Below, piece after piece: positions 36,215 to 57,263 of a stretch of DNA of 64,000 bases (the stretch's first letter is position 1; each line of letters opens with the position of its first letter). The stretch comes from a virus. Lineage: Duplodnaviria; Caudoviricetes. The notes below the pieces were generated by a model that saw nothing but the letters and a program-made list of their open reading frames with translations, was not told where the DNA came from and searched no databases. A program made the translations under genes and the position numbers. The stretch covers positions 20,315 through 84,314 of the IMG/VR virus record IMGVR_UViG_3300033074_001499; one strand, 5' to 3'.

Positions 36215-36256
36215 GAACCCATAGAAAGCAAAAACATCAACACAAGGAATACTGAA

Positions 36257-40677: not shown

Positions 40678-40972
40678 GCTTAGTCATTGCTTTTGATTTG
40701 TCTTTTGAAACATTCATAACAGAATAACACACCTTCACGTATTCTCCAAGAAGAACATCATCATGCTTTATTTCATTAGGAATCTCAATCTCTTTCCTAG
40801 CTGTAGCACAGATATACCACCTCATTTCCTCTCGTGTCAAGGAAGATGGAATTAGAATATGTTCTCCTGAAAGAGCTTTCTCCATCCTTTCCATGTCGAA
40901 ATTGATTTCATCAGTCATCTTCTTCCCATTCTCCGATAGCCTGATAAAGCTCACACAAAGCAGATGTAGCAT
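40625..40972 (-). CDS. Hypothetical protein (start probably MTDEIN)
   Basis: ORF track. Confidence 0.65.
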   Translation of the reverse strand: MLHLLCVSFIRLSENGKKMTDEINFDMERMEKALSGEHILIPSSLTREEMRWYICATARKEIEIPNEIKHDDVLLGEYVKVCYSVMNVSKDKSKAMTKRGRDKIVESNMEDKSDD

Positions 40973-41144
40973 CCATTAATGCTTTTGCACAACGTTGATT
41001 CCAGATAGCAGGATGTGGTGGACGATCTGTGAATTCCTGATCTGGATCAACAAAACCAAGACTTTGTTCAAGCATAACAAGCATCATGTGTGTGCGATCG
41101 AGGCCTTCATGTTGAAACCACTTATCAATCTTTTCTTGAGTCAT
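40911..41144 (-). CDS. Hypothetical protein
   Basis: AAGGAGAAGA RBS; HEGLDR...ELYQAIG. Confidence 0.75.
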   Translation of the reverse strand: MTQEKIDKWFQHEGLDRTHMMLVMLEQSLGFVDPDQEFTDRPPHPAIWNQRCAKALMDATSALCELYQAIGEWEEDD

Positions 41145-41316
41145 TCTTCTTCTCCTTTAACATCCCCGAACTCACCTACATATTTGTAGTAATGTGTAGT
41201 AGAGAGGTCAATATCAAAAACATTGCACATATCTAGACACTGCTTGCATGGGTTGTTATCTGTACAACCCTGAGGATTGTTTTCTTCACAATAAGAAGTA
41301 ATAGCTAGAAATCTGG

Positions 41317-41547
41317 TCATTTTTCTTCCTCCAAAGCTTTATACAGTTTTTCATAATTCTCATCAACAATAGCTTGCTCTTCTTTTGTTAGAGATGACCA
41401 AGGAATTTCCCCTTCATAATCCATTATCTCATCAAAAGAGGCTTTTGGGAAGCCAACAACCCATCCATAATCAGACAGCTTTGAGAATTGCATTTCCATC
41501 CCTGTCTTTAAGTTTTTGTAATAGTAATGTACAGGATCAATTTTCAT
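41317..41547 (-). CDS. Hypothetical protein
   Basis: ORF track. Confidence 0.7.
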   Translation of the reverse strand: MKIDPVHYYYKNLKTGMEMQFSKLSDYGWVVGFPKASFDEIMDYEGEIPWSSLTKEEQAIVDENYEKLYKALEEEK

Positions 41548-41858
41548 TTATCTATTTCCATCCAATCAATAAATTCTTGTCTTTGTTTAAAATACTCTTT
41601 TTCTCTATCCCTCTCAATTTTATTTTTTACGGCCAAACCTACAGCATTATTTTCATCAGGATTCATCCAATAGACATTGCAGGTAAAACCATAATGAGGG
41701 TCTAAATAAATTTCAATTTTAAGGTATTCTTTGCTCGACTCATTCTTAAAAATTTTAAGATTGTACCACTGAGGATCGTTTTCTCTTTCTAGGTAAATCG
41801 TAGGATGATCTTCATCAATTCTTTTAATGATTTCAATTACAGGTTGTGAAATTTTCAT
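41544..41858 (-). CDS. Hypothetical protein, ISEPV family
   Basis: ISQPV motif. Confidence 0.75.
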   Translation of the reverse strand: MKISQPVIEIIKRIDEDHPTIYLERENDPQWYNLKIFKNESSKEYLKIEIYLDPHYGFTCNVYWMNPDENNAVGLAVKNKIERDREKEYFKQRQEFIDWMEIDK

Positions 41859-42238
41859 GCAACACCATCCACAAACATTCTAATTAAAATATTATCTACA
41901 GCTTTCAAAATATTATGTCTAGTTTCAAAATCTTCTACATCAAACGCGAGCTGTGTAATTTCATTTAGCATTGGACGAAATTCTCCGAACACAGCCTCAG
42001 CCATAGATTTTCTTGTTTGATATTTCACCATCCCCAGCATTTCTTTATCGTGTTGAGTGACGATTACTTTCTGAGAAAGAGCTACACTAATATCATAGCT
42101 GATGTTATATGAAGATGGATTCTGAGGATAGCGTTGCTCAGTCCAACTATCTTTGACATTCACGAATTTAGACAACACAGGTACATAATATCGATTTTCA
42201 TCTTGTTTAGCTTGTACGAGACGAATTAGTTCACTCAT
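41855..42238 (-). CDS. Hypothetical protein
   Basis: ORF track; EAVFGEFR. Confidence 0.75.
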   Translation of the reverse strand: MSELIRLVQAKQDENRYYVPVLSKFVNVKDSWTEQRYPQNPSSYNISYDISVALSQKVIVTQHDKEMLGMVKYQTRKSMAEAVFGEFRPMLNEITQLAFDVEDFETRHNILKAVDNILIRMFVDGVA

Positions 42239-42684
42239 TTACAATACACTCCCATAACACGTTGACGTTCTTTAGTTTGTTCAATTTTAGATTTAGCTTC
42301 ACTTTTCTTTTTACGTCTATCTTCCACTCTTGCAATTCTTTCTGCAAGAACTTTCATTCTTTTATTCACTTCTGAAATTACATATTCCTTTTCTTCTTCA
42401 GTCATCCATGTTGGAAGAGGACTGTCATTTTTAAATGATAAGGGCATAGGTTGAGCAAATTTACCAAATTCACTACACCAGTAAGTTCGTGCTACAAGCA
42501 AAAAACATTTTTCCCCTGTTTCATTATCAGTAAAATGAAATGCATAAGAACCCCACACACCACTTTCATGCCATTTCATACTCCATCTTCCTTTTTCATC
42601 AAAAGTTTTTACAATTGAATAAACAGGCTCTGAGATATTGGCAGGCGGTGGGTTCTTTGATTTAAACCAATTAAACATCGTCAA
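42235..42684 (-). CDS. Hypothetical protein, ISEPV family
   Basis: ISEPV motif. Confidence 0.75.
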   Translation of the reverse strand: MTMFNWFKSKNPPPANISEPVYSIVKTFDEKGRWSMKWHESGVWGSYAFHFTDNETGEKCFLLVARTYWCSEFGKFAQPMPLSFKNDSPLPTWMTEEEKEYVISEVNKRMKVLAERIARVEDRRKKKSEAKSKIEQTKERQRVMGVYCK

Positions 42685-43294
42685 TCCCCATTTTATAAAT
42701 TTCTGTTAGTCGAATACGTTCTTTCTGATTGTTTCTCTTTGTACGAACATCTTTTAAATATTTTAAACGCTCAACTCTCTCTTTTACAATCTTCTCCACT
42801 TCTTCTACCAGATACGCAAGCTCATCTTCAGTAGCCCACAGCAAATTTTTAGTGTTGACACGGTACTTGGTGGAATGACTGAATTCATATGCATCAACTT
42901 CATATTTTTCTTGTGAAACTAAATCCAAAAGTTCCAATCGAACACGGGTATATGTACCACGATCTTCTTCAGGATAACTTCTTTCAGTCTTAAATCGCCT
43001 TGGAGTTTGTTTAAAGCATTTAAGAAATGAAATAACAGGCTCAGAAATATGCTCATTGAAAACTGGTTCTTTAATCGGCTCTTGTTTTGATATAAAATCC
43101 CTAGCATCTCGTTCTGTTTTAAATCCCGATTTGTATAGATTATAATCTACAGTAAATATGTGTTTATTATCCCTTGTCCTCTCTTCTTTATAACATTTCA
43201 CATAAACATCGTAGATAGTGTTTTTAAAGATAAATCCTTTCACAGCTTCTCGAATTGTATAATCAAGCAGGCCGTTCATTTCTTCCACCTCCAA
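42671..43294 (-). CDS. Hypothetical protein, ISEPV family with N-terminal extension
   Basis: ISEPV motif. Confidence 0.75.
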   Translation of the reverse strand: MEVEEMNGLLDYTIREAVKGFIFKNTIYDVYVKCYKEERTRDNKHIFTVDYNLYKSGFKTERDARDFISKQEPIKEPVFNEHISEPVISFLKCFKQTPRRFKTERSYPEEDRGTYTRVRLELLDLVSQEKYEVDAYEFSHSTKYRVNTKNLLWATEDELAYLVEEVEKIVKERVERLKYLKDVRTKRNNQKERIRLTEIYKMGIDDV

Positions 43295-43674
43295 AGATCA
43301 TTCATTTCTTTAAAAACTGGCTGCATAATTTCTTGTGCAAGCTGTTCACACAGATTTTTGTACACTTTATCAAGATGTTCTTTCTTATCCTCCAATAAAT
43401 TATCAAGTTTTGTTTTCACTTGATATTCTTTACCATTCAAAACAAACTTGACAATGTAAACTGTCTCATAGTTTACAGGATTTTCAAAAGCAATACAAGC
43501 AGCACTGAGTGTATTATTGGTTGTGGAGACACTTCCTACAATACTTTTTAAAGATTTCTCCCTCATTTCTTCCAAAAGCTTCAAACTTTCATCTGTTGGA
43601 GCACGTTTTTCTGTAATATTCACATTTTTAGTAATTTCACGAGTAATATGCTGGTCATAATAAGTATCAAACAT
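43276..43674 (-). CDS. Hypothetical protein
   Basis: ITEKRAPTDES..LL.EM, a recurrent phage family. Confidence 0.75.
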   Translation of the reverse strand: MFDTYYDQHITREITKNVNITEKRAPTDESLKLLEEMREKSLKSIVGSVSTTNNTLSAACIAFENPVNYETVYIVKFVLNGKEYQVKTKLDNLLEDKKEHLDKVYKNLCEQLAQEIMQPVFKEMNDLWRWKK

Positions 43675-43686
43675 TAATATTTTCTC

Positions 43687-43947
43687 CTAAATTGCAGCAT
43701 TATTTTCAATAAAACATTTATCACGCAATGTTTTGTAGATTGTAGAGTTTTTTATAGCAGATTTATCTATTCCTTGCAAGTTGAAAATCCACACCACCTT
43801 GTAATAAGCATCATGTTCACATTGAATCACTTGTATTTCTTTAACATCCTGAGCCCAAACATCATAATACACAATGTCTGTCTTGTGTTCAACAGAACAT
43901 CCGAATAAAAACATGCAAAGCAGGAGGGAATATTTCATTCTTTCCAC
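43687..43947 (-). CDS. Putative lipoprotein
   Basis: Signal peptide ending LFGC. Confidence 0.6.
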   Translation of the reverse strand: MERMKYSLLLCMFLFGCSVEHKTDIVYYDVWAQDVKEIQVIQCEHDAYYKVVWIFNLQGIDKSAIKNSTIYKTLRDKCFIENNAAI

Positions 43948-44132
43948 ACCACTTCTTGTTTTGGCTTAGTGAAAATTCTTTTATGTCGTTCAAGAGATTC
44001 CATTGCTTCCTCTAGCGTGCCTTCAGAGCCAGGATTGCCATGGTTATCTTCAAAAGAGTACACCCAAAACAACCAAAGCACTTTATGTTGCACATAAAAC
44101 ATATAATCTTTCTTAATAATTCGATATTTCAT
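43935..44132 (-). CDS. Hypothetical protein
   Basis: ORF track. Confidence 0.7.
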   Translation of the reverse strand: MKYRIIKKDYMFYVQHKVLWLFWVYSFEDNHGNPGSEGTLEEAMESLERHKRIFTKPKQEVVWKE

Positions 44133-44323
44133 TAATATTTACCTTCTCTGTAAAGAACTCCGTCAATTTGACATTGTACGTAGAAAACATCCCCTTCCCG
44201 CCCCGTACCGCGTGCTGGAATACCACCTAAAGACTTACATTTCTGCTCAAGTTTACTCACTTCCTCAAAACTCATCGAACAACCACCTAGAAAAACCATT
44301 AGAATCAAAACATATTTCATCAA
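44132..44323 (-). CDS. Putative lipoprotein
   Basis: Signal peptide ending LGGC. Confidence 0.65.
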   Translation of the reverse strand: MMKYVLILMVFLGGCSMSFEEVSKLEQKCKSLGGIPARGTGREGDVFYVQCQIDGVLYREGKY

Positions 44324-44605
44324 TTAATCCTCTTTTCTTGAAAAACACACTTTAATTTTAGAATTGAATAATTCTACTTCTCTGCAATGTTCACCAATTA
44401 AGTGAATTCCTAGTGGTTTTGTCAGAGCTAAAGTTTTAAAAATTTCATCATCTTTCCCGCCCACCACATTTACAGCTATACAGAAATTATCAAGAGTTTC
44501 AATTTTTACATATTCTACTCCATCTATCTCATATAGACATTTTTCTATAGATTTGAAATTTGCATGTCTCTTGAAATTGTCATTTAATTCTTTAAAATCT
44601 AACAT
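44324..44605 (-). CDS. Hypothetical protein
   Basis: ORF track. Confidence 0.65.
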   Translation of the reverse strand: MLDFKELNDNFKRHANFKSIEKCLYEIDGVEYVKIETLDNFCIAVNVVGGKDDEIFKTLALTKPLGIHLIGEHCREVELFNSKIKVCFSRKED

Positions 44606-44826
44606 TCCATCATCCTCGCTTTCCGAACAATTTCATTAAGAGCCTCGTTCCACCCTTTATCATAACTTTCTTCTTCAATAGTTTTGTTAAGTTTGTCAAT
44701 TTCTTCTGCAAATTTTAAAACAATAAAGGCAGGGATAGAATCAACCACCCCTGCCTCAATATACTGTACAATTTCTTCCACTGTCAAGTGTTCAAGATTC
44801 ATTTTTATTCTCCTTAAATAAAACAA
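44599..44826 (-). CDS. Hypothetical protein (start probably MNLEHL)
   Basis: AAGGAG RBS. Confidence 0.65.
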   Translation of the reverse strand: MFYLRRIKMNLEHLTVEEIVQYIEAGVVDSIPAFIVLKFAEEIDKLNKTIEEESYDKGWNEALNEIVRKARMMEC

Positions 44827-44940
44827 TAGGGATATTTCACCCCATTTTAAACAAAATATATTATACCCGTTAAGACTTGTTTAAAAATAGCATTTAAACG
44901 GCCTACAAGGCCCCTAGAATCGTTTTTCTGTTTGGGCCCG

Positions 44941-45636
44941 TTAAATGGTATTCCTTTGCTCTTCTACCTCTTTAACATCGTCTAAGACGGCTTTCATTTG
45001 ATGTTGATTTTTAACTGGATTGGAACTGCAAATTTTTATAGCATATTCCGCTCTTCGAATTCCTAAAATCTCTATCATAGCTTCAAGATATTTTGGTGGA
45101 ATTTTGTAAATCTTTTTTGCATACTCTAAAACATGATCTAAAGATTTAAAATTTTTACCATCTATTTTTATAGGAGAATTTTCAGACTTCTCAATTTCAA
45201 TACCGTCAAAACTTACACACCACGGTTTCCAATCCATCCTTTGTTGTGCAATTTCTGCTAAATGTGAAACACCTTTTGCGAAAATTTCAAACCTCCCCGT
45301 AAACTGTGCATACTCTAACCCATCTTCATCCCAAACTTGACTATATCTTATAATCCTATTAAGTTTTATAGACAATTTAATTTTACACTCATCTGCTCTG
45401 TCAAAAATATCTTTTTGTAAACTGTCGGACAATAGATTGTTACATTCAGAACAAGCGGGTACTGTGAGTGGTCTATGCGTGTTATACAAACTCATGTAGT
45501 CGTGATACCTGCTTACAGGAGGAACATGATCTTGCGTGTTTGATATTTCTCCACAATAAAAACATCTACCCTTGTAAGCATAAGGTACATCAATTGGCGT
45601 ATATAAATAACCTATTTGATCTCTATTTAATTTCAT
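44941..45636 (-). CDS. HNH-like zinc nuclease-domain protein
   Basis: CFYCGE...QDHVPP...VPACSECNNL. Confidence 0.72.
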   Translation of the reverse strand: MKLNRDQIGYLYTPIDVPYAYKGRCFYCGEISNTQDHVPPVSRYHDYMSLYNTHRPLTVPACSECNNLLSDSLQKDIFDRADECKIKLSIKLNRIIRYSQVWDEDGLEYAQFTGRFEIFAKGVSHLAEIAQQRMDWKPWCVSFDGIEIEKSENSPIKIDGKNFKSLDHVLEYAKKIYKIPPKYLEAMIEILGIRRAEYAIKICSSNPVKNQHQMKAVLDDVKEVEEQRNTI

Positions 45637-46195
45637 CTATATGTTTTAATCTCTTTTCCAAATTTCCTCAAGAAGCTTTTCTTTCTGATTATCATTAAGA
45701 TAATCTGCTGTGTTAATGATTCTTGTGACAGATTGTAGAGTTTTTGTGTGAATCAAATCCATTTCTTCCTTCAATTGTCGAATCTTATTATTAAATTCTT
45801 TCTTTTCTGAATTTAACATCAATCTTCTCTCCAATATTCTACTTGAACAACTGGATTCCCATAAACATATCCAGATTTGATTTGAAAATTCTTGATCCCG
45901 AAGCTCAAACAAAAATCACTAGCACTCTGAAGATTACGAAAAAGCTTCACATGACGTTGTTGTTCTTCGTATTCACCTTCAATAATGTTATTTTCTTGTT
46001 CAATCTTTTCCATTAATTTCCCCTCAATCAAACATCTCAGCACAATATTCTGATACGAATAGACAAATATCAATATCTGACATATTACTATCCACTTTAT
46101 ATTTCAAATAATCTTTACCAAGATAACCAAATCCTTCTTCATTATATTCAGATTCTTCTACCCACTGACCATCTTCCCAAATGATAATAGTTTTC

Positions 46196-46576
46196 TTAGA
46201 CATAATCGTCTCCTAGAAATTCTTTTACATAATCCTCAAATTTAAATTTTACCACATGTGATTGTGTAAGGATAATTCGATTTTTCTTGGAGTATTGCAG
46301 TTTTACGTTATACACAATCTTTGAAGCAAAGGCAACATGTAATTGGTATGGTGTAAATTTATTAAAAGGATACTTGAAATATTTATGACCACTCCAATCA
46401 CGAAGAGTTCCGTTATGTAATTTTACAGCAGTGTTGAAAGAGATATTAGCGATTTCTTTCAGATTAGGATGATTCGTATAGAAGAATTTCTCTGTTGGAT
46501 GAGCTGAATATTCATACCCAAGAGCTTTCATGAAATTCATCAAACTTTTCAGTTGAATACGACTAGTATCAATCAT
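46196..46576 (-). CDS. Hypothetical protein
   Basis: ORF track. Confidence 0.7.
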   Translation of the reverse strand: MIDTSRIQLKSLMNFMKALGYEYSAHPTEKFFYTNHPNLKEIANISFNTAVKLHNGTLRDWSGHKYFKYPFNKFTPYQLHVAFASKIVYNVKLQYSKKNRIILTQSHVVKFKFEDYVKEFLGDDYV

Positions 46577-46585
46577 AATTTTTCC

Positions 46586-46780
46586 TTAAACGCCATCTGG
46601 AAGGCAAATAAATGTGTTGTGTTGTTTTAGTCCTTCGATGTGGGGAATCTTAACACGTTCTCCAGCATTGATGCAAGCTTGTTCTGTAGTAAATCCAGGG
46701 ATAACAATTGAAGATTGCGAACTTTGATTATCCCAAGGGCTTACATTTAAGCTGATAATCAAAAGAGTGTAACTAATCAT
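46586..46780 (-). CDS. Small secreted/membrane protein
   Basis: GFTTEQACINAG, similar to 36865 gene motif. Confidence 0.65.
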   Translation of the reverse strand: MISYTLLIISLNVSPWDNQSSQSSIVIPGFTTEQACINAGERVKIPHIEGLKQHNTFICLPDGV

Positions 46781-47201
46781 TGTATTTCTCCACTTTCAAG
46801 TTTAATTTTTTAAGATTTTGCACACCATCAGTAAGTCTATATTCGTTTTTATAAACCACTTTGTCAATACCCGATGCAGCAATCATTTCAGAGCATTTCA
46901 AACATGGACTCAATGTAACGTAAAGTGTTCCTCCCACAACACTAACCCCTTCTTTAGCTGATTTCAAGATAGCATTGAGTTCTGCATGTAGTACATGTTC
47001 TTTGCTTACAAGATTACCATGCTCATCCACATATTCAAGCTCATTTTCACTCCGAGGGGCCATACCATTGCACCCACCAATCAAAACACCATGTTTTGTA
47101 ACAATGCAAGCACCAACTTTAGCTCTGACGCCTTTGCTTAGCTTTGAAAATGATTCTGCTACTTCCATGTATACTTTGTCAAGCTCTTTTTGACTGGCCA
47201 T
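46773..47201 (-). CDS. dCMP deaminase
   Basis: KVGACIV, LHAELNAIL, TLSPCLKC, VVYKNEY. Confidence 0.9.
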   Translation of the reverse strand: MASQKELDKVYMEVAESFSKLSKGVRAKVGACIVTKHGVLIGGCNGMAPRSENELEYVDEHGNLVSKEHVLHAELNAILKSAKEGVSVVGGTLYVTLSPCLKCSEMIAASGIDKVVYKNEYRLTDGVQNLKKLNLKVEKYND

Positions 47202-47420
47202 TTAAAAATCTACCAGATTTCCGTTGAAATCTTCAAGATTCACAACAATACTATTTTCTTTTAGAATACTCAAGGCGTGACTTTCTGACCAAACATCATG
47301 TGTAGAGATTTTATTTTCGTTCATAATTTCAAACAAATGATTTTCTACAAAACGTTTCGGAACTTCATTCAAAAACCACAGATCAGAAATTTCATCCCAT
47401 TTAATTGTATAAGTTTTCAT
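47202..47420 (-). CDS. Hypothetical protein
   Basis: ORF track. Confidence 0.65.
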   Translation of the reverse strand: MKTYTIKWDEISDLWFLNEVPKRFVENHLFEIMNENKISTHDVWSESHALSILKENSIVVNLEDFNGNLVDF

Positions 47421-47698
47421 TCAAAATCCTCCTGCTGAATGACATCATTTTTAAGAATATTCATCAAATCTTTAAAACTCACATTACTACTTGTATGAAT
47501 CTTTTTCAGATCACTCTCTTTAATCCAGAACTCTCCGTTGTGAGAGATAGCTTTGTCTTCTGTCAGGAAAGATACTTGATAACTCTTTACAACAGCTCCA
47601 CTAGGAAATGAAGATGTTTTTGAACGAATGATTTTCACTGGTGAATCCGATAGAAGAGCAATTTCATTGTAAGAAAAATAATGTTCAGACATTTTCAT
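47417..47698 (-). CDS. Hypothetical protein
   Basis: ORF track. Confidence 0.65.
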   Translation of the reverse strand: MKMSEHYFSYNEIALLSDSPVKIIRSKTSSFPSGAVVKSYQVSFLTEDKAISHNGEFWIKESDLKKIHTSSNVSFKDLMNILKNDVIQQEDFE

Positions 47699-48113
47699 CT
47701 CCTTTACTTGGAATATCTTTTTCTAAATAAACTCTGACAGCATAAGTTATTTGTCGTCTTGGACCATCATAGTAATCATGCACAATTCCGTCAATTATAG
47801 CAAAAGCATGCCCCCTGACAAGAACATAATACCTCCCCTTTGGATGATTTTTACAGAAATGGCTTACACAGATTCTGTTTGATGCTGAATAAGGTCCTTC
47901 TTTTACTTTAGCTTTTTTAACAGAATCAAAAGCTTTTTTAATTTGTTTTCGTGTCATGCCTTTTCTGTCGTATCTTCCAAATCGTTTCATGTAGAAATGT
48001 GCTTTTGCATATGGACAATCAAATACTCTAGCCCACGCTGTGACAGTACAATCATTGGTTTCACCAAATTGCTTTCTGACGCTATCGTATTCTGTATTTG
48101 CTATCCATTCCAT
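47685..48113 (-). CDS. Putative papain-fold (C39-like) peptidase
   Basis: NDCTV.A Cys and GHAFAIIDG..HD His/Asp pattern. Confidence 0.5.
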   Translation of the reverse strand: MEWIANTEYDSVRKQFGETNDCTVTAWARVFDCPYAKAHFYMKRFGRYDRKGMTRKQIKKAFDSVKKAKVKEGPYSASNRICVSHFCKNHPKGRYYVLVRGHAFAIIDGIVHDYYDGPRRQITYAVRVYLEKDIPSKGDENV

Positions 48114-48116
48114 ATT

Positions 48117-48389
48117 TTACCTCTTCTGTCCTCGTCTAGTGGAAGTTCCTTTACACGTGTAATTTCCAGACCCTTGACTTTGTTTAGCTGTTCTTACAGT
48201 GTATTTACCGTCGTAATATTCTTTTATATAATCAATAACTTTTTGCCTATCTTTTGTATTAAAAAACAAATAGTCTCCTGTAGCCAATTGAATATAGAAT
48301 TTTCCTTTCGCATTAAAAAGAAACGACCCACTTTCTTCATCATAGTATTCAATTTCATTTTCAGGTACAAGCGTGGTTTTGACTGTCAT
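48117..48389 (-). CDS. Hypothetical protein
   Basis: ORF track. Confidence 0.75.
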   Translation of the reverse strand: MTVKTTLVPENEIEYYDEESGSFLFNAKGKFYIQLATGDYLFFNTKDRQKVIDYIKEYYDGKYTVRTAKQSQGSGNYTCKGTSTRRGQKR

Positions 48390-48391
48390 AT

Positions 48392-49504
48392 TTATTCCTT
48401 AATAAATCCATAGTGAGTTAACTCAGCCTCTTCTCTCACAAACACAGCAAGTTCAAAATCTGTAGTAACAAAAATCCTTTTCTTTTTAATGCGCACATCC
48501 CAAACACCCGGTTTAATTTGATATACGCCAGTCCTTCCTGATTTATTTGTAACTCTTTTATTTTGATTAAACGCTTGGGTTACCCTGTCTGCCCAACAAC
48601 AATTTTCTTTGCAGTAATTACCATTCGGGTCTTTTCTTTCAAGAGTATATTCTGATGAAGGTTTAGGTCCCATATCAGCATAGAAAGCCATAAAATCTTC
48701 TTCCCACTCTTTGCTCATAGATATTCCTCTTCCGCCATATCTATCATATGAGCCTGAATTAGAATTTTTTACTCGCGTTTTAGCGGCCTGCCAAGAAATA
48801 TATTCGGGTGTTCCTGTCATCTCATGTTTTAAGTTTCTCTCAGCCGAGTTTTCGGCGTGGAAACAACCACAACTTTGAGTATGTCCTGTGGACAATTCAT
48901 TGTAGGATGTTTCAACAACATTACCGCAATCACATTTGCATACCCATCGGATTCTAGAGTCCCCATGTTTATCTTTGATTCTTTTCTTGTCTACAACGAG
49001 AAGTCTATTGAATTTTTGACCAAAAATATTATTACTTTCAGCGTAAACCCATTCTAGATTTTCAGCTTTATTGTTATTCTTATCTCCATCCTTGTGTATG
49101 ACGTAGGGCTTATTTTCAGGATTTGGAATAAACTTTTCTGCAACCAGCCTGTGAAGTTTAGATGTTTTACCAATCATCCCACATTTCACCATCAAAAATC
49201 CTTGAGCATCTGGCACAGCTTTTAATTCTTTACCCCAACGCATGCTTAAGATTGAACCTTGGTCTGAAATACAATACTTCTTCTCTTCGTCCAACCACTC
49301 CCAATTACCAGAAGGTAACTTAATATTTTTATTGTAGCAAGTTTCACAGTGGAAAGATTTTGATGCTCCTTTCAAAACAATAGGAATTTGTCTCTTATCT
49401 ATATCAAAAGATTTACCGCAATCGCAGTGACCCTCTACACGGTATTTTCTTCCCCTGAGATATTTTCTTGAAACTGTCAACCATTGAAATTTTTCCTCAT
49501 TCAT
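48392..49504 (-). CDS. Tandem two-nuclease-domain HNH homing endonuclease
   Basis: HRLVAEKFIPNP..KPYVIHKDGDKNNN..NLEW plus second LERKDPNGNYCKENCCWA domain. Confidence 0.85.
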   Translation of the reverse strand: MNEEKFQWLTVSRKYLRGRKYRVEGHCDCGKSFDIDKRQIPIVLKGASKSFHCETCYNKNIKLPSGNWEWLDEEKKYCISDQGSILSMRWGKELKAVPDAQGFLMVKCGMIGKTSKLHRLVAEKFIPNPENKPYVIHKDGDKNNNKAENLEWVYAESNNIFGQKFNRLLVVDKKRIKDKHGDSRIRWVCKCDCGNVVETSYNELSTGHTQSCGCFHAENSAERNLKHEMTGTPEYISWQAAKTRVKNSNSGSYDRYGGRGISMSKEWEEDFMAFYADMGPKPSSEYTLERKDPNGNYCKENCCWADRVTQAFNQNKRVTNKSGRTGVYQIKPGVWDVRIKKKRIFVTTDFELAVFVREEAELTHYGFIKE

Positions 49505-49658
49505 ATTCCAGTTCTTCTTTAATTGCCCAGTAAGTTTCGCCTAGCATTGCTTCTTGTTGTGTATTGTTCCAGCTTTTAATTTCATCAAAATCATCCATCA
49601 CTTCAACAATCTCCGCTTCAATATAACTTTCTAGTCGTTTACCAATCATTTCATCTCC

Positions 49659-49967
49659 TTATAGCACAGGAATAGGGAATGGAGCAAAACTAACAAAATC
49701 TTCTGAATACCCTTCTTCAATTTTGTAGCGAATGTAATAGGATTCTAGACGATTCTCTTTTGGTTTGCAAGAAAATTGTGCATAAATGAAATCTCCAATC
49801 TTCACAGCAGCAAGAGAACGAGATGTTTCCCAATTACGAGTAATATAACAGAAACCAGCTTTGTCCAGATTTTGATCTAAAATACGATTGAATTTATTTG
49901 GCGAAATAACATGTTTGTATTGATGATTTTTATTCTTACGTTTCATTGATTTTCCTCCATTACTCAT
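49659..49967 (-). CDS. Hypothetical protein
   Basis: ORF track. Confidence 0.65.
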   Translation of the reverse strand: MSNGGKSMKRKNKNHQYKHVISPNKFNRILDQNLDKAGFCYITRNWETSRSLAAVKIGDFIYAQFSCKPKENRLESYYIRYKIEEGYSEDFVSFAPFPIPVL

Positions 49968-51262
49968 CGGTCGTTCTCCCGAGGAAATGACTTACACGGA
50001 CCGAAGAGCCCGCAGACAGCACAGGTACGCGGATAGGGCTTTCCCTCAGCCATGAGCACGCGCTGACACGTTTTGCCCACAAACTCAACTGTGTGCGGTT
50101 GCTGGACAGTCTGCTGCTGTTCGGATGCAGGCGGGACTGGTGCGATCAACACTTTATCTTCATCAGAGAGCAGCGGGCCAATGCATCGCCAGCCGTGCAT
50201 CTTGACGGACTGCAAGCTGCCGATCTTCAGAGGGCCTGGCTGCCCCACTTCGAAATCGACAGGTGAAGAGCCGTCGGCATTCTTGCCGATGAAAACGCAG
50301 TGCTGAATGTCGATTCTTGGGACGGCCAGTTCGTTGGTGCGCGAGACTGTTTTTAGCATTGCAGCTACTCGATCCCGCATCGACTCACCGTTGACCACAA
50401 CGCAGTTCATCCCGCAGCGCAGAAGGTCAGATAGAAGCTCTTCCAGCCCATGCGGCACCCCAGCAGCAGGCGGGGCTGCAGTTGCGTGATCGGCAAACGT
50501 CATAGGCATGCCGAGTGACACGGCGATGCTGCGCTCTAGCAGGGCGCCTTTGCTTTTTTCCCAACCAGGCAGGAAGTGGACGGATTCGCACCGCGAGAGT
50601 TGAGCGATGTCATAACGCAAGTAATCGCACCACCCTGCGCCATCTACGATGCCATGATCTGCGGGATTGACTACATCAAAGCCAACGCTACGAAGCCGTG
50701 CAGCCTCTGCATTAAATGCAGGAAAATTGAACTCAGCGTATCCAGTCATTGGGCCCGCCAGATAAACGCGATTGCGACGGCTATCTGCAAGTTGAATCTG
50801 TTGTGCAGCAGCAGGCGGGGCGGAGAGCGCGGCGTCACGCTCTTGCTCGGCCGTGGCACACGCAACAGCAACTTCGTGCAGGCGGCTATTAGCGCAGGAG
50901 ACTTCAGTGCGCAGGCCGGCCACGATGCGCTGATGCTGGGCGACGGTCATCAGGGGTTCACTGCAGCACACATCCTGGGCTGCCTTCACTACGCAGGATG
51001 TGTGGCCGTGGCGACGCATGAGGTTCAGATCGCTGGGGTCAGCCCACGCCACCACCTCCACCTCTTCCCCATCCACGATATGGGCAGGGGATTTGAATAG
51101 TGGATCAGAATCAATAAAAACTTCATCAGGAATATTTTCCCAATTTCGTCGTAGAACCTCAAACTCACCTTCATTCCATAGATTCAGAAACAAAATTGAA
51201 TCAGAGTCATCATCACATTTCTCAAGTGCATATTTAATTGCTGCTACTGCTGAATCATTCAT
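49964..51262 (-). CDS. Mosaic protein with DUF4406 (nucleoside deoxyribosyltransferase-like) domain, GC-rich
   Basis: RVYLAGPMTG...NFPAFN.EA...NPA...DI..L..C....LPGWEKSKGA.LE; start 51262 (AAGGAG RBS). Confidence 0.82.
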   Translation of the reverse strand: MNDSAVAAIKYALEKCDDDSDSILFLNLWNEGEFEVLRRNWENIPDEVFIDSDPLFKSPAHIVDGEEVEVVAWADPSDLNLMRRHGHTSCVVKAAQDVCCSEPLMTVAQHQRIVAGLRTEVSCANSRLHEVAVACATAEQERDAALSAPPAAAQQIQLADSRRNRVYLAGPMTGYAEFNFPAFNAEAARLRSVGFDVVNPADHGIVDGAGWCDYLRYDIAQLSRCESVHFLPGWEKSKGALLERSIAVSLGMPMTFADHATAAPPAAGVPHGLEELLSDLLRCGMNCVVVNGESMRDRVAAMLKTVSRTNELAVPRIDIQHCVFIGKNADGSSPVDFEVGQPGPLKIGSLQSVKMHGWRCIGPLLSDEDKVLIAPVPPASEQQQTVQQPHTVEFVGKTCQRVLMAEGKPYPRTCAVCGLFGPCKSFPRENDR

Positions 51263-51986
51263 TTGTAATCTCCTTTTTACATTGTTTCGGGATAAGATCA
51301 TATTTCTTTTTAATTTCAGCTACACCTTTCTTGATTCCATTTTGCACAGCTTGTTCGATTTCGTCAAGCAGATTAAATTGTTCTTCTGGTTCTTCATTCT
51401 CTTCTTGGCTACTTTCAACCAAAGCTTGTCGATAATCATACATTTTCTCAAGACGTTCTGCAAGCTGGTCAGCATCAAAATAAAACGGAGTGCCTTTGAT
51501 AACGTCCTCCAGATCATCTTGACTCAGGAAACCACTATACACATCTTCATACAATTTACGAAGCTGTTTTCGTGAGAAATTGGCATGTTCATAAATATCT
51601 GTATCTTTTGCCATCAAACCATATGTGCTCGTGTGGATCATCAGATTTGATGTGTCATCTAGGACATGTTCCCGACACGACAAAGCAAGAATACTGCCAG
51701 CAGAGCTACAAGCAGGTCCAATAATTGCTACAGTGTGGGCGGGAGTATTGAACAATGCACGTTTAAAAAGCATTGCCGTATCTAGCACACCACCATCTGT
51801 ACAAATATCAAGCACAATTGTGTCCATTTCCGATGCAGTATTAATCAAATTCAGTTCATCAAGATAATCCCCAGGATTACCAATATCTTCATAAATCTGA
51901 ATAACATGCGTATTTGCTACTGTTTGATTAGTTGAAATACGTGATGGTTTTTGCATCAGGGGAATTAGGTTATCATCATTTCGCAT
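51255..51986 (-). CDS. ClpP-family serine protease
   Basis: ICTDGG, ACSAGS (Ser), LMIH (His). Confidence 0.85.
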   Translation of the reverse strand: MRNDDNLIPLMQKPSRISTNQTVANTHVIQIYEDIGNPGDYLDELNLINTASEMDTIVLDICTDGGVLDTAMLFKRALFNTPAHTVAIIGPACSSAGSILALSCREHVLDDTSNLMIHTSTYGLMAKDTDIYEHANFSRKQLRKLYEDVYSGFLSQDDLEDVIKGTPFYFDADQLAERLEKMYDYRQALVESSQEENEEPEEQFNLLDEIEQAVQNGIKKGVAEIKKKYDLIPKQCKKEITNE

Positions 51987-52811
51987 TTAAATCTCCTTAA
52001 TATTTTCAGCAGAACCTTCTTTTTCAAAAATCTCAACAAATGCTCTCGTCAAACCTGATCGTACAATGTCTGCTGGGGTAAATTCAATCACAGAGCAGTT
52101 TGGAAGACTGTGTTTTTTAATGAGATTTGCAAGGTATACAATACCAGAAACACCTTTCACGTCTCGTTGTTTATCATCCCCGCAAAATGCTACCTGACTT
52201 CCTTCTTCCAGTCGAGTGACAATTGAACGAACCTCTTCAACTGACAAATTTTGTGATTCATCAAGAATCAAAAATGTTCCTGAAGGGAAAGACATACCAC
52301 GAATAGCCTCTAGTGGTTGGATTTTAATTGTTTTACTAAATTCTGCTTGATATCGATGATCCCCAATTCGTTCTTTAATTACATTGAGAATTGGTGCAAC
52401 ATACGGAGCGAGTTTTTCTTCAACGCTCCCAGGCCAGAAGCCTGTGCTTTTTCCCATCGGTACATAAGCCCTGGCAACAATGATTTGTTTAATTTCACCT
52501 TTCAAATACTTATTTGCAGCTACAGCCGCTGCACACCAAGTTTTTCCGCTTCCGGCACTTCCTTTCCCAACACTAACAGTATCGAATTGAAGACTGTGTA
52601 GATATTTTTTCTGATTTTCATTCTTCGCAATAATTGGTTTTGCTTTATGTTCTTCTGCAAATTTCTCTTTAACTTCAGGTTTCACCCCACCATTACGAGT
52701 TTTACGAGTGCGTTTACGTGGCACTTCAACTTCCATGCCATCTACTTCAAGCTTGATCATTCGTTGCCGAGCACCCATATTAAATTCCTTCTGCTTTTTT
52801 AATAATTTCAA
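51987..52811 (-). CDS. phoH: PhoH-like ATPase
   Basis: GSAGSGKT, IRGMSF, LILDESQN, GDDKQRD, IVRSGL. Confidence 0.93.
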   Translation of the reverse strand: MKLLKKQKEFNMGARQRMIKLEVDGMEVEVPRKRTRKTRNGGVKPEVKEKFAEEHKAKPIIAKNENQKKYLHSLQFDTVSVGKGSAGSGKTWCAAAVAANKYLKGEIKQIIVARAYVPMGKSTGFWPGSVEEKLAPYVAPILNVIKERIGDHRYQAEFSKTIKIQPLEAIRGMSFPSGTFLILDESQNLSVEEVRSIVTRLEEGSQVAFCGDDKQRDVKGVSGIVYLANLIKKHSLPNCSVIEFTPADIVRSGLTRAFVEIFEKEGSAENIKEI

Positions 52812-52977
52812 AAACTTGCTTCACATAATCAGGAACATCATATTCTTCAATTTCAAAAATTTCTGATGCCGTATCATTAATAACATTTTTATCATAGTAT
52901 TTAAGTGTAACGAGGTCTTGAATATATCCCGAAGTGACAAAACCAGTAGTTACAAAAAACTCAATTTTATTTTTCAA
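52780..52977 (-). CDS. Hypothetical protein
   Basis: ORF track. Confidence 0.65.
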   Translation of the reverse strand: MKNKIEFFVTTGFVTSGYIQDLVTLKYYDKNVINDTASEIFEIEEYDVPDYVKQVFEIIKKAEGI

Positions 52978-53291
52978 TTCAAAACTCCTTTTTCTATAGA
53001 AAACATTTCAATGTAAGGGAGAATCACTTCGCTCATATTGAAATACAGATTTTCAACAGCTTTTTGATATTTCTTATAATCTTCAGAATTATAAAAATCA
53101 TCCACAGCTTTCATACTCTCTTCTGTAGCTTCTTTCTTAAAATTCTTCAGAAGTTTTTCGGCTTCTTTTTCAAAACTCTTTCCATCCACCAAAGCTACAG
53201 CTTGATTATATTCTTCATCATCTTGCACTACAACAGCCGCTGCATGTTTAAGGGCATTTTTAATGGCCAACTCTACCTGTTCAGAATTCAT
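52974..53291 (-). CDS. Hypothetical protein
   Basis: ORF track. Confidence 0.7.
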   Translation of the reverse strand: MNSEQVELAIKNALKHAAAVVVQDDEEYNQAVALVDGKSFEKEAEKLLKNFKKEATEESMKAVDDFYNSEDYKKYQKAVENLYFNMSEVILPYIEMFSIEKGVLN

Positions 53292-53779
53292 TAGTTTTCT
53301 CCATTAGTTTTTAAGATAGCTTGAGTCATCACTTCACGGGAGCGATTGAAACAATCAAGAGATTTTCCAACTTCTTTCAATTCTTCATAGCTCATGTTCT
53401 CTAGCTGTTCACGAGTGTACTTGATATTTGAAGGATGGTCAAGATTGACAAATTCACAGGTTTTAAAATTCATAAAATTATAATTCAAGCTATCATAATC
53501 TGGTGAATAACCCTGAACAACAAACTGTTGAAATTTCTTTACAAAATCATATTTATCTCGTTCGGAAATAACCACTGTAACTTCTTTGTTATAATCAATT
53601 GTATCAAGTTGCTCTACAGAGTATACATCCAGTTGTAGCATCCCTGTTGACCATTCTGTGATGTCTGATTTTTTATCAATAAAACGATAACCTTGTTTGA
53701 TAGCATTTTCAAACTCTGAAAACACATTAACAGGGTTGGACCCAATAATTAATTTTTCCATTTCACTTCTCCTTATCAC
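53291..53779 (-). CDS. Hypothetical protein with C-terminal HeH/Rho-N-like motif
   Basis: YTREQLENMSYEELKEVGKSL. Confidence 0.7.
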   Translation of the reverse strand: MIRRSEMEKLIIGSNPVNVFSEFENAIKQGYRFIDKKSDITEWSTGMLQLDVYSVEQLDTIDYNKEVTVVISERDKYDFVKKFQQFVVQGYSPDYDSLNYNFMNFKTCEFVNLDHPSNIKYTREQLENMSYEELKEVGKSLDCFNRSREVMTQAILKTNGEN

Positions 53780-53969
53780 TCAGTAGAAAATCTGCAATCC
53801 CAACCATTAGCCAAACAGGCCAAAATAGTGAAACAACCCATACAATTATCGAAGCAATAGCACCCTGTTTATCTGTTTTTCGTTTAACCATATCTGCAAC
53901 CACAGCTTTACTAAATTTATGCGTAATCAGTAGATACAAAGCCGTTAAAACGATGTATACTATAGTCAT
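53763..53969 (-). CDS. Two-helix membrane protein
   Basis: Hydrophobic segments, SLFWPVWL. Confidence 0.7.
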   Translation of the reverse strand: MTIVYIVLTALYLLITHKFSKAVVADMVKRKTDKQGAIASIIVWVVSLFWPVWLMVGIADFLLSDKEK

Positions 53970-53975
53970 TATTTA

Positions 53976-54188
53976 CTATTCCTTATTTATCATTAGAAGA
54001 TATTCAAGATATTCACAATGAGCTTTGTAAGCTACATTCTCTTCTTCCAACTCTTCAATATATTCTTTTAGAGATTTAATTTCTAGTTCCATAGCTGCAC
54101 ATTTCAAACGAGCTTTATCTCCTTTCTCTGCTGCGTCAAGAGCTAGTGCCAATTCGTTTTCTAGAATTTGCTTTTCAATATCATTCAT
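53976..54188 (-). CDS. Coiled-coil hypothetical protein
   Basis: AGGAG RBS. Confidence 0.7.
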   Translation of the reverse strand: MNDIEKQILENELALALDAAEKGDKARLKCAAMELEIKSLKEYIEELEEENVAYKAHCEYLEYLLMINKE

Positions 54189-54337
54189 TTAAAATCTCCT
54201 TTCAATTTATCAATCGCTTCTTCAACAACCACACCAGCAATGTACAGCTTCATAATATGCTTCGATTGTTGATCAGTCAAGGTGTGAACAGAAAAATGTG
54301 TCTTCACTTCATCACAATATTTTTGGAAAGAAATCAT
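54185..54337 (-). CDS. Small hypothetical protein (50 aa)
   Basis: Hand-translated MISFQKYCDEVKTHFSVHTLTDQQSKHIMKLY... Confidence 0.6.
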   Translation of the reverse strand: MISFQKYCDEVKTHFSVHTLTDQQSKHIMKLYIAGVVVEEAIDKLKGDFK

Positions 54338-55525: not shown

Positions 55526-55735
55526 ATGAAATGTTTAGCTTGTGACTGCTTCCTTAGAGAATCAGAATTGAATATGAAAAAAGAAGATGGTAGTTTTGAA
55601 GATATGTGTACGGATTGTCGTAGAATTTCATACGGATATGAGTACATGGAAATCAAAGAATATCAATTCCAACATCTAACAGAGATGATCCAAAACTACT
55701 TTTATATGAAAAATATTCAATCAGAATACGATTAA
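55526..55735 (+). CDS. Small zinc-finger protein
   Basis: MKCLACD...DMCTDC. Confidence 0.75.
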   Translation: MKCLACDCFLRESELNMKKEDGSFEDMCTDCRRISYGYEYMEIKEYQFQHLTEMIQNYFYMKNIQSEYD

Positions 55736-55737: not shown

Positions 55738-55767
55738 TTGACAAATACTAATAATATAGTATATACT
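55738..55767 (+). promoter_or_regulatory. Sigma70 promoter
   Basis: TTGACA-N18-TATACT. Confidence 0.7.
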
Positions 55768-55773
55768 ATAGCT

Positions 55774-55877
55774 TATATAGTGAATAAAAATATTTCTCCT
55801 AAATCACATGTCTTCTCCTTCATGTGATCCTCCAATAACCCTTGGTTATTTCTCCTAGCCAGGGGTTATTTCTTTTT
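55774..55877 (+). ncRNA. Candidate anti-Shine-Dalgarno sRNA
   Basis: Two hairpins with UCUCCU loops, last followed by a U-rich tail; own promoter. Confidence 0.7.
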
Positions 55878-55895
55878 CTAAGAAGGATTGTCAAT

Positions 55896-56276
55896 ATGGC
55901 ATTCGATCATAGTAGTCATGCTAAGAAGATTGGCATGAAAAAAGGTGAAACCAGAAATCCAAATGGTTCTCCTACAAAAGTGCGTATCACTAAAAGTCCT
56001 CTTCGTAAAACTGCTGAATCACTCCGTGAAGTGGAAGAGGATGCTCTTAAAGCTATCAAGCTTGCTGTGAAAGGTCAAGAGGTTGATAAGACACAGCTTG
56101 AAACAGCTAAGTGGTTGATTGGCATGATTCAAACAATAGATAAATCTGCTTCTCAAGAAGAAGTAGCAGCAGCTAAGATTCGACTAGAAGCTAAAAAAGC
56201 ACAAGAGAATGGTGCTGGTGTTGAAGACGTACACCAAGCGGATATAGTTGAATTTACTTTAGATATTGTCCAATAA
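55896..56276 (+). CDS. Putative terminase small subunit
   Basis: GMKKGETRNPNG motif typical of TerS; upstream of terL; start 55896. Confidence 0.65.
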   Translation: MAFDHSSHAKKIGMKKGETRNPNGSPTKVRITKSPLRKTAESLREVEEDALKAIKLAVKGQEVDKTQLETAKWLIGMIQTIDKSASQEEVAAAKIRLEAKKAQENGAGVEDVHQADIVEFTLDIVQ

Positions 56277-56646: not shown

Positions 56647-57198
56647 ATGCAAAAAGAAATCTGGAAAGATGTTGTTGGTTACGAAGAATACTTCATGGTG
56701 AGTAGCACAGGTAGGGTTTGGTCTAAGAGAACTGAAAAATTGTTAGCTCCTACACAGTTAAAAAGTGGCTATCTTGTTATAAATTCTAAGATAGGTGGTA
56801 GAAATGGCAAAGCTGTTTCTCTAAGAATTCATAGATTGGTTGCAGAGGCTTTTTTATCTGAGCCAGAAAAATCAATAAGTCAAGCTTGTTCAGAAACCCT
56901 CTACGGTAAAGTTCCTGTTAACCACAAAGACGGGGACAAAAAGAATAATTGTGTAGAAAATTTAGAATGGTGCACTTATTCTTATAATACTCGCCATGCT
57001 ATACAAAACGGCTTTCTTGTACACAAGAAGGGTTTTGAAAACAGTTTATCCAAACTGACAGAAGAACAGGTTTTGGAAATAAAAAGTTGTTATGTAGCCA
57101 ATCATAAAATTTTTGGCACCAGAGCTTTAGCAAAGAAATACAATGTGCATCACACGACAATAAGTAGAATTGTCAGAAACAATGCTCCGCGTTCATAG
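56647..57198 (+). CDS. NUMOD4-HNH homing endonuclease
   Basis: EIWKDVVGYE..FMVSSTGRV (NUMOD4); HRLVAEAF...VNHKDGDKKNN..NLEW; start 56647. Confidence 0.9.
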   Translation: MQKEIWKDVVGYEEYFMVSSTGRVWSKRTEKLLAPTQLKSGYLVINSKIGGRNGKAVSLRIHRLVAEAFLSEPEKSISQACSETLYGKVPVNHKDGDKKNNCVENLEWCTYSYNTRHAIQNGFLVHKKGFENSLSKLTEEQVLEIKSCYVANHKIFGTRALAKKYNVHHTTISRIVRNNAPRS

Positions 57199-57263
57199 TT
57201 TAATTGGCAAAACCCTAGACTTCCAATCTAGTGTTCCCAGATCGTGGCTGGGTGGACGCTCCA
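57189..57263 (+). tRNA. tRNA-Gly(UCC), atypical T-loop
   Basis: GCGTTCA/TGGACGC-T-CCA; CTAGA-CTTCCAA-TCTAG; CCCAG-ATCGTGG-CTGGG. Confidence 0.88.

Follow-up and report, generated by a model that had tools for sequence, protein, structure and literature searches.

A short structured unit directly upstream of the late genes of an uncultured tailed phage raises the question of whether RNA takes part in the control of early and late gene expression. Is this unit a free-standing small RNA gene acting on the ribosome-binding sites (RBSs) of other mRNAs, or is it part of the operon that it precedes? The original prediction, made from the letters alone, favored the former and described an independent sRNA gene of ~100 nt that displays four anti-Shine-Dalgarno (anti-SD) motifs and silences early and middle (or host) mRNAs as late expression begins. 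The window, that is, the whole stretch of DNA analyzed here (64,000 nucleotides), makes up 76% of IMG/VR virus record IMGVR_UViG_3300033074_001499, which is 84,314 bp long and 91% complete.

Genome layout and position of the unit

A rough gene map combined with family searches places genes for nucleotide metabolism and replication (RNR, ThyX, PolA and primase-helicase) in a minus-strand block at positions 1-22,800. On the same map, small genes fill a plus-strand block (22,900-37,300) and a second minus-strand block (38,300-54,200). The late operon lies on the plus strand, starts at 55896 and wraps past the end of the record into its first 20 kb, so that it covers roughly 28 kb of tRNA, packaging and morphogenesis genes, in the order 126-aa protein, HNH gene, tRNA-Gly, 278-aa protein, terL, portal gene and further genes. 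DUF5681 was suggested for the 126-aa protein, for which a homology search found 16 homologues, by a feature-based lead, and the gene at the equivalent position in Pseudomonas phage PAK_P3 is annotated as DUF5681. The 69-aa CxxC protein encoded on the other side of the unit has no Pfam family match, and a PDB sequence search with both flanking proteins returned noise only.

About 25 TTGACA-type promoters are found in the early regions, as against exactly one, at 55738, for the late operon, and the interval between the terminator and the first late gene leaves no space for a second. The ~105-nt unit, preceded by the only consensus promoter of the late operon (55738) and with a U-tail that stops 17 nt short of the ATG (55896), is therefore the leader of the tRNA/packaging/morphogenesis operon and not a separate sRNA gene, contrary to what was originally proposed. 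Late transcription must therefore traverse the leader terminator.

Anatomy of the leader

The promoter, the two hairpins, the terminator and all individual strings were recovered exactly where the original prediction had placed them (Table 1). The same site carries a promoter in relatives, where it is annotated in the GenBank records of KIL1 and PAK_P3.

Table 1. Features of the leader region and of matching RBSs, in window coordinates
Feature	Position	Strand	Description
AGGAGAAAUAA-type RBSs	upstream of genes 7979, 9817, 24599 and 3975		
Small 69-aa protein gene	55526..55735	+	CxxC...CxxC, C-terminal EYQxxHLTE-like motif; directly 5' of the leader promoter
Sigma-70-type promoter	55738..55767	+	TTGACA-18-TATACT; 11/12 consensus positions
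Predicted leader RNA, ~105 nt	55774..55879	+	5' end deduced from the -10 element and 3' end from the terminator position
Single-stranded anti-SD motif 1	55792..55800	+	ATTTCTCCT (RNA AUUUCUCCU); from sequence and fold
Hairpin 1 (HP1)	55803..55828; arms 55803-55810 / 55821-55828	+	8-bp stem, 10-nt loop TCTTCTCCTT (RNA UCUUCUCCUU)
Single-stranded linker CCUCC	55829..55833	+	linker plus HP1 3' arm form the complement of GGAGG-N5-AUG
Hairpin 2 (HP2), intrinsic terminator stem	55834..55870	+	12-15 bp; loop (UUA)UUUCUCC(UAG), extended form UUAUUUCUCCUAG
U-rich terminator tail	55871..55879	+	TCTTTTTCT (RNA UCUUUUUCU); ends 17 nt before ATG 55896
Weak Shine-Dalgarno (SD) sequence AAGGA of first late gene	55883..55887	+	12 nt past the terminator stem
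First late-operon gene	55896..56276	+	126 aa; probably DUF5681-like; small-terminase candidate

The plus strand of the leader folds with a minimum free energy (MFE) of -28.6 kcal/mol (z = -6.1), which none of 200 shuffled sequences attained, and a terminator scan recovers HP2 at 15 pairs when G-U pairs are counted. Both results agree with the earlier description of a structured, plus-strand RNA ending in a terminator. In this fold, 15 of the 17 motif nucleotides are unpaired. The nested fold also keeps the SD of the first gene free, and folding revealed no alternative antiterminator structure in the leader. A -10-like TATAGT at about +2 to +9 of the leader is inconsistently conserved.

Within the 84-kb genome, the leader is the only non-coding 100-nt segment with four such motifs on the transcribed strand; the two other segments with four motifs correspond to coding sequence or to the opposite strand of an RBS run. 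Scans of G000 and the relative G001 turned up no further intergenic hairpin of this kind, combining a CUCC loop with a U-tail, and Rfam 15 holds no family matching the window (E ≤ 10) or ten relatives (E ≤ 1).

It could be argued that the minus strand is the functional one, either as a GGA-loop sponge for CsrA/RsmA or as a mini-ORF of 16 codons served by a separate GGAGG SD, since AGGAG occurs in the same loops and GGAGG-N5-ATG is present. However, that strand has neither promoter nor terminator at this site and folds more poorly (z = -3.1 versus -6.1), whereas the plus-strand promoter and U-tails are kept in relatives. Moreover, no peptide is conserved, and L013 and L017 encode none at all. 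We therefore reject this explanation as highly improbable.

Anti-SD motifs are retained in uncultured relatives

Relatives were reached via homologues of the 126-aa protein in viral contigs, metagenomes, Logan assemblies and one metagenome-assembled genome (MAG). Twelve leaders were compared (the window, L003, L009, L010, L012-L017, L026 and L031). In each, a sigma-70 promoter precedes a stretch of 106-329 nt in which 3-6 CUCC/CCUC sites occur. The set totals 46 sites in ~1.9 kb, versus ~1 per 415 nt genome-wide. CCUCC/CUCCU motifs are present in 2-6 copies in loops or linkers, and most of the leaders have a terminator. In MFE folds of the nine leaders first folded, ~90% of the motif nucleotides are unpaired, compared with 36-47% of nucleotides overall; across all twelve, the motif lies in the loop of 22 of 49 predicted hairpins and of 9 of 12 terminator hairpins. 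Relatives have 2-5 hairpins per leader, and both loop length (7-24 nt) and motif context (terminal loops, internal loops and linkers) vary.

The stem sequences of one subfamily are unrelated to those of another; the loops, in contrast, read CCUCCUCC, CCUCCUCCUCC, CCUCUCCUCCU, UUCCUCUCCUCCU, CUUUCUCCU and others. Because relatives with unrelated stems nevertheless retain CCUCC/CUCCU in their loops, the comparison supports the view that selection keeps the exposed anti-SD motifs. This is the reverse of the pattern, drifting loops on conserved stems, that had been named beforehand as speaking against the original proposal. On a finer scale, the loop of the L003 subfamily varies by CCU repeats and its terminator stem shows a change from U-A to C-G. 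In run X2 (~4% diverged), the 106-nt leader differs at two positions, one beside a loop and the other converting a stem G.U pair to A-U; the run sequences compared are contigs and probably represent DNA, and a search for RNA-derived runs with this sequence gave no match. The substitution G55862A strengthens the HP2 stem.

In L012, the homologue of the 126-aa protein is encoded farther along the operon and not by its first gene, yet the leader remains at the operon start. The leader thus belongs to the operon rather than to the gene for the 126-aa protein. L029 and L030 lack the whole module, and their promoter abuts the gene. A small ORF occupies the position of the 69-aa gene in L009, L010 and L013-L017, as judged by alignment, and also in the cultured phages M5.1 (unannotated) and PAK_P3 (gp160). 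Separately, CAGAACACAGCAGAAA, a conserved string before the first gene in relatives, was considered as a late-promoter motif and discarded; it occurs only there.

A single anti-SD hairpin in cultured Pseudomonas phages

Searches of cultured phages with the region (blastn) and with the 126-aa protein (tblastn) gave no match, and cultured relatives were instead reached via terL synteny, terL sharing 43-46% identity with its counterpart in Otagovirus phages. The corresponding block of Pseudomonas phage M5.1 starts with the unannotated CxxC mini-gene and runs through a tRNA cluster to terL. Behind the mini-gene, TTGACA-17-TATACT precedes first a small and then a long hairpin, the latter with loop UUUCCUCCUCCUUU; an SD and the ATG of a protein that begins MEQKNKGGRPTK follow ~11 nt later. 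The region is present in 51 records of the genera Otagovirus and Flaumdravirus. These records and PAK_P3 (Nankokuvirus) share a common layout with an invariant loop, UUUCCUCCUCCUUU or UUCCUCCUCCUU, that displays CCUCCUCC. PAK_P3 carries, in order, gp160 (CxxC), the annotated promoter_16, a 10-bp hairpin with loop UUCCUCCUCCUU, a 10-nt spacer, AGGAG and gp161 (annotated DUF5681).

In an alignment of 11 records, the loop and its flanks are invariant at a mean column identity of 77%, and compensatory changes at 4 of 20 pairs support both hairpins. The covariation in related phages that had been suggested as a check is thus seen in the hairpins of cultured relatives. Among the Otagovirus phages, the 14-nt loop stays invariant while the flanks diverge by 20-30%. 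We also considered a cos/pac or terminase-site reading, against which the hairpin covariation argues by indicating a feature at the RNA level.

In all of these cultured phages, the hairpin lacks a U-tail. It follows that the anti-SD hairpin is old within this phage group and that the extra copies and the terminator are confined to the uncultured clade.

The cultured phages also bring into focus the possibility that the element acts in cis only. In that case, one or more loops would pair with the SD of the first gene in a pseudoknot, or would stabilize the 5' end, and thereby set translation of that gene; the terminator would be an attenuator and the short RNA a by-product. The hairpin of PAK_P3, Otagovirus and Flaumdravirus fits well, being a plain 5' UTR element without a U-tail whose base lies 7-12 nt before the SD, and HP2 of the window stands at an equivalent distance of 12 nt. 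The SD of the cultured phages can be GAGG or GGAGA, but their loop does not change with it, which would be the expectation for a mimic of 16S rRNA; the loop's predicted duplexes with the SD (-7.8 to -9.1 kcal/mol) equal or exceed those of 16S rRNA with the SD, and in L012 the leader tracks the operon start. On the other hand, predicted pairing in the window between the HP2 loop and the SD of the first gene is weak (-4.5 kcal/mol), and this SD is left free in the nested fold. In most uncultured relatives, moreover, the anti-SD hairpins lie 150-200 nt away from the SD, in some cases with a tRNA in between, and a single contact would not require 2-6 motif copies or an added terminator. An exclusive role in cis is the most serious alternative to our model, although we consider it somewhat unlikely.

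Alternatively, the loops could be protein sites, bound by a phage antiterminator or regulator (for example the CxxC or the DUF5681 protein) that enables read-through, or by a titrated host factor with affinity for pyrimidine-rich RNA or for RNA resembling the 16S tail, such as S1, Rho or a bS21-type protein. The succession of promoter, short transcript, terminator and late operon mirrors the factor-dependent logic of lambda PR'-tR' (PMC7547250). Even in very distant phages, the gene for the small protein keeps strict synteny with the leader, the invariance of the 14-nt Otagovirus loop exceeds the need of a 4-6-nt seed, and the leader is devoid of an alternative antiterminator fold. Against this, the varied loop length and context are more in keeping with a linear seed than with a protein site of defined shape, and some members of the small CxxC protein family lack the cysteines. 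In addition, no homologue of RegA, RegB, bS21 or DUF1127 was found in the genome, although for RegA and RegB the control genomes gave no response either. A protein-binding function seems improbable to us.

Pairing with the ribosome-binding sites of the phage

String counts bear out the complementarities that first drew attention to the locus. The loop of HP2 is the exact 11-nt complement of the RBS string preceding genes 7979, 9817, 12734, 24599 and 30664; AGGAGAAATAA occurs six times in the window (these five RBSs and the complement of the loop) versus 0.09 times expected by chance. AAGGAGAAGA, which the HP1 loop complements before genes 3975 and 41144, occurs four times versus 0.32 expected. 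For anti-SD motif 1 and RBSs of the AGGAGAAAU type, predicted pairing reaches -16.5 kcal/mol.

Likewise, late RBSs match the loops less well than the others, in line with the original prediction. A perfectly complementary stretch of 8 nt or more occurs in 25% of the 122 non-late RBSs and in none of the 37 late ones, and the predicted duplex energy between the four exposed segments and the RBSs averages -10.8 kcal/mol for non-late (n = 122) versus -8.9 kcal/mol for late sites (n = 37; p = 1.6e-4). The generic 16S tail shows no such difference (p = 0.29). Non-late RBSs are richer in GGAG (57% versus 30% of late RBSs), GGAGA (39% versus 16%) and GGAGAA (29% versus 3%), late ones favoring AAGGA. 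None of 150 flank shuffles around a fixed CUCC core reaches the observed late/non-late gap, and changing CUCC to CAAC halves the predicted pairing.

The gap persists in a full cofold model (-8.2 for non-late versus -5.6 kcal/mol for late RBSs; p = 1.7e-4). However, whole-RNA mononucleotide shuffles produce an equal one in this model (-2.24 ± 0.58 versus -2.56 kcal/mol for the real RNA). Because composition-matched shuffles discriminate equally, the cofold gap is explicable by the purine- and A-rich initiation regions of early genes, and target discrimination may be compositional. For the relative G001, the late/non-late effect is significant by duplex energy (p = 0.009) but not by cofold (p = 0.34). 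Sorting RBSs by temporal class, as had been suggested at the outset, thus separates late from non-late sites by duplex energy, a result qualified by the equal gap from shuffled RNAs and by the cofold analysis of G001. The 'direct terminal repeat' label of the G001 sequence, which may merely reflect circular assembly, was set aside.

What is conserved and accessible is the generic CUCC core, which is unpaired across the family, and not the extended complementarity. L002, X2 and X17 (95-99% identical) carry T55847G, by which the 11-nt match is lost and the three inner pairs of HP2 are not conserved, and G001 has AGGAGAAATAA at four RBSs, yet its loops contain no complement. The ratio of GGAGA to GGAGG is 39:11 in G000 and 27:25 in G001; a tuning of the loops to each phage's own RBSs is suggestive at best in this comparison of two phages with differing loop lengths. 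Since any SD complements any anti-SD mimic, complementarity alone cannot separate action in cis from action in trans, or name targets.

For the proposed switch from early to late expression, the outcome is mixed. Better pairing of early and middle RBSs than of late ones stands, while the specificity and the timing are called into question by the equal performance of shuffled RNAs, the loss of the 11-nt match in close relatives and the early class of the promoter. Sharing its sigma-70 class with the ~25 promoters of the early regions, the leader promoter does not suggest an RNA made as late expression begins. Rather, the ~105-nt RNA would be expected from the start of infection, and an early or constitutive-looking promoter fits poorly with the silencing of early genes at late onset.

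Comparison with known systems

The leader combines elements of known kinds, namely anti-SD sRNAs and terminated late leaders. Silencing of mRNAs at the RBS by redundant anti-SD loops is known from alpha-r14/NfeR1, the cuckoo RNAs and LhrC (PMC10746234, PMC4615179, PMC4132741). In the cuckoo/alpha-r14 group of Alphaproteobacteria (CcsR1-4, NfeR1), every loop (9-27 nt) displays CCUCCUCCC on highly variable stems (PMC4615179, PMC10746234), and cuckoo RNAs, which contain no multiloop, line up two to four hairpins of 24-50 nt each (PMC4615179). In the window, two hairpins, of 26 and 37 nt, likewise lie side by side, and relatives have 2-5; like these RNAs, the relatives show redundant motifs (CCUCCUCC, CCUCCUCCUCC and CCUCUCCUCCU) in their loops on variable stems. 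By contrast, the window loops contain UCUCCU, with CCUCC confined to the linker, and in relatives the motif extends to CCUCCUCC(U), without every loop showing the full 9-mer. Covariance models are weak for the cuckoo family according to the family paper (PMC4615179); the leader has no Rfam match and no alphaproteobacterial neighborhood. It further differs from cuckoo RNAs in being phage-borne, in lying in a late-operon leader behind a sigma-70 promoter and in its AU-rich motif variants. The resemblance to cuckoo/alpha-r14 RNAs is one of architecture and does not point to common descent.

The LhrC1-5 RNAs of Listeria monocytogenes are ~100 nt long and pair through three CU-rich sites with AG-rich SD regions (PMC4132741, PMC5880928). 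The phage leader matches them in architecture only, with sites divided among a hairpin loop, a single-stranded segment and the loop of the terminator in a ~100-nt RNA; LhrC itself has a UCCC motif, is chromosomal, multicopy and stress-induced, and has neither sequence similarity to the leader nor a corresponding Rfam match there.

As in lambda PR'-tR' (6S RNA), a constitutive-looking promoter is followed within ~100-200 nt by an intrinsic terminator directly before the late genes, with no other promoter. No Q-like antiterminator or qut site was identified here, and family searches with the neighboring proteins gave no match. A terminated transcript of a lambda-type late promoter PR' can act as a trans sRNA, as described for StxS, which uses Hfq and a different seed (PMC7547250). 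In virulent Pseudomonas phages, ncRNA candidates arising from 5' UTRs by premature termination have been reported (PMC10914365). sRNA1 and sRNA2 of PAK_P3 lie downstream, in the tRNA region, and the accessible text on them reports no anti-SD feature (PMC4933390). PAK_P3, a distant relative, has the same operon layout, and the accessible parts of these two papers do not mention its gp161 leader hairpin with a CCUCCUCC loop (PMC10914365, PMC4933390). Our literature search found no paper describing the leader hairpin.

Proposed model

The recurrence of this design in relatives, including cultured Pseudomonas phages, points to a real, undescribed phage element and makes it a candidate riboregulator. 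The account that we put forward, and that we hold to be about evenly balanced between right and wrong, is that the unit is the leader of the tRNA/packaging/morphogenesis operon and belongs to a conserved, undescribed leader-RNA family of Felix-O1/PAK_P3-type myoviruses, carrying four anti-SD sites and a terminator and acting by pairing with SD sequences. The family layout would comprise the gene for a small CxxC protein, a sigma-70 promoter, at least one hairpin whose loop mimics the 16S anti-SD and a DUF5681-like first gene. In the lineage of the window, the anti-SD sites would have multiplied to four and an intrinsic terminator would have been gained.

From these features we infer that host RNA polymerase would start from the promoter at 55738, stop mostly at ~55879 and release an RNA of ~105 nt, the late genes then depending on read-through or antitermination. 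The exposed CUCCU/CCUCC motifs would most likely pair with SD sequences, a mode of action that is favored because bacterial sRNAs of the same design silence mRNAs via anti-SD loops. Pairing in trans would concern RBSs of the GGAG(A) type, which are enriched in early and middle phage genes, and presumably host mRNAs; pairing in cis with the first gene's own SD may also occur on read-through transcripts. In the uncultured clade, the terminator and the multiple sites favor a role in trans. A released sRNA would nevertheless be neither the ancestral nor the universal function, as cultured relatives lack the terminator and L029 and L030 the module.

A more far-reaching version sees the terminated leader as an abundant sRNA and an RNA counterpart of T4 RegB and RegA. 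RegB, which cuts GGAG, and RegA are proteins that shut off early mRNAs at their SD regions, and the late genes of T4 use other SDs. They would be functional analogues of the leader, which is an RNA whereas they are proteins. The anti-SD loops would out-compete the 30S subunit on GGAG(A)AAUAA-type RBSs (predicted pairing of -14 to -19 versus ~-8 kcal/mol for 16S rRNA), shutting down translation of early and middle phage genes and of the host while late genes of the AAGGA type escape. Such a system would have evolved from the single cis anti-SD hairpin still present in PAK_P3 and Otagovirus. We regard this version as unlikely.

If our account holds, a widespread and previously unannotated riboregulator would occupy the switch point in many virulent myoviruses, a large group that includes the therapeutic phage PAK_P3 and the Otagovirus/Flaumdravirus biocontrol phages. 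These phages would then use mimics of the ribosomal anti-SD tail to control translation, whether the target is their first packaging gene or a large number of mRNAs, and their leaders would form an apparent evolutionary series from a single cis 5' UTR hairpin to a released multi-site RNA with a terminator. The question is directly testable, given that cultured relatives as well as published RNA-seq and ONT-cappable-seq data for PAK_P3 exist.

Host and lifestyle

The phage appears to be virulent and of the Felix-O1 type, and an alphaproteobacterial host is unlikely. The only MAG found to carry a relative is labelled Bacteroidota. In view of the TTGACA/TATAAT promoters, the strong SDs and the kinship with Pseudomonas phages, this label is likely the result of mis-binning.

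Ribosome-binding sites and terminators of the late operon

Late genes, taken as the operon from 55896 onward together with positions 1-20,200 of the whole phage record (G000), were compared across the window with all non-late genes. Late ribosome-binding sites (RBSs) are of the AAGGA and UAAGG type, whereas those of early and middle genes read AGGAGA or GGAGAA. GGAG-bearing RBSs make up 57% of the non-late and 30% of the late set in G000, and the relative genome G001 shows a difference in the same direction (61% versus 47%). This split resembles the dichotomy between early and late Shine-Dalgarno (SD) sequences in T4, which is exploited by RegB.

The late operon itself contains strong intrinsic terminators on the + strand, and read-through is therefore required downstream as well as at its start. 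The first of the two in the table (L032 4889-4910) is built as AGAGGGGTC-GCAA-GGCCCCTTT followed by a T-run; terminators of this kind are often found 3' of the major capsid gene.

Features of the late operon and of corresponding loci in relatives
Feature	Location	Strand	Remark
Strong intrinsic terminators within late operon	L032 (G000 late operon) 4889-4910 and 1154-1173	+	
64-codon CxxC...CxxC ORF	L034 3009-3203 = MZ826350 ~22,508-22,702 (Pseudomonas phage M5.1)		Unannotated
Inserted 130-143-aa ORF	L027 3-395; L028 440-871		
tRNA or remnant, terminator-to-gene interval	L015 1063-1136; L003 ~2830-2900; L009 ~815-850; L031 ~1350-1420		
tRNA-Gly (UCC)	Window 57189-57263		Confirmed by ARAGORN
CAGAACACAGCAGAAA, 5' of first gene's ATG	L013 ~2452-2470; L009, L012, L026, L031		

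Variation around the operon start in relatives

Upstream of the leader, the 69-aa CxxC gene has a positional homologue in the M5.1 ORF and in gp160 of PAK_P3; in the corresponding stretch of PN09, a minus-strand ORF is annotated instead.

In one lineage (L029, 1015-1075, and L030), the anti-SD leader and its terminator are wholly missing; a TTGACA-16-TATAAT promoter lies about 35 nt upstream of the first gene, and the SD is covered by a short GC hairpin. In one relative, the leader and the homologue of the 126-aa gene are parted by an extra ORF immediately 5' of the latter; this ORF may encode a homing endonuclease.

In the L003 subfamily, a tRNA or a remnant thereof separates the first gene from the terminator of the leader. 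The element in L015 scores 30.1 bits against the Rfam tRNA model, and that in L009 is reduced to the T-arm-like GGTTCGATTCC. Most relatives also have tRNA clusters 3' of the first gene; in the window, tRNA-Gly lies within the late operon between an HNH gene and a 278-aa gene.

Several relatives retain CAGAACACAGCAGAAA 25-45 nt upstream of the first late gene. It was rejected as a general late-promoter motif, since it does not occur in the window and has no further copy elsewhere in G001.

Contig and bin anomalies

The phage contig of L031 (JASBTZ010000015.1, 60.6 kb), a member of this phage family, belongs to a metagenome-assembled genome labelled Bacteroidota. Mis-binning is suggested by the family's sigma-70-type promoters, strong SDs and kinship to Pseudomonas phages. 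In sequencing run X10, one Logan contig flips strand precisely at hairpin 1 of the leader (window 55789/55828), most likely an assembly artefact at this palindrome.
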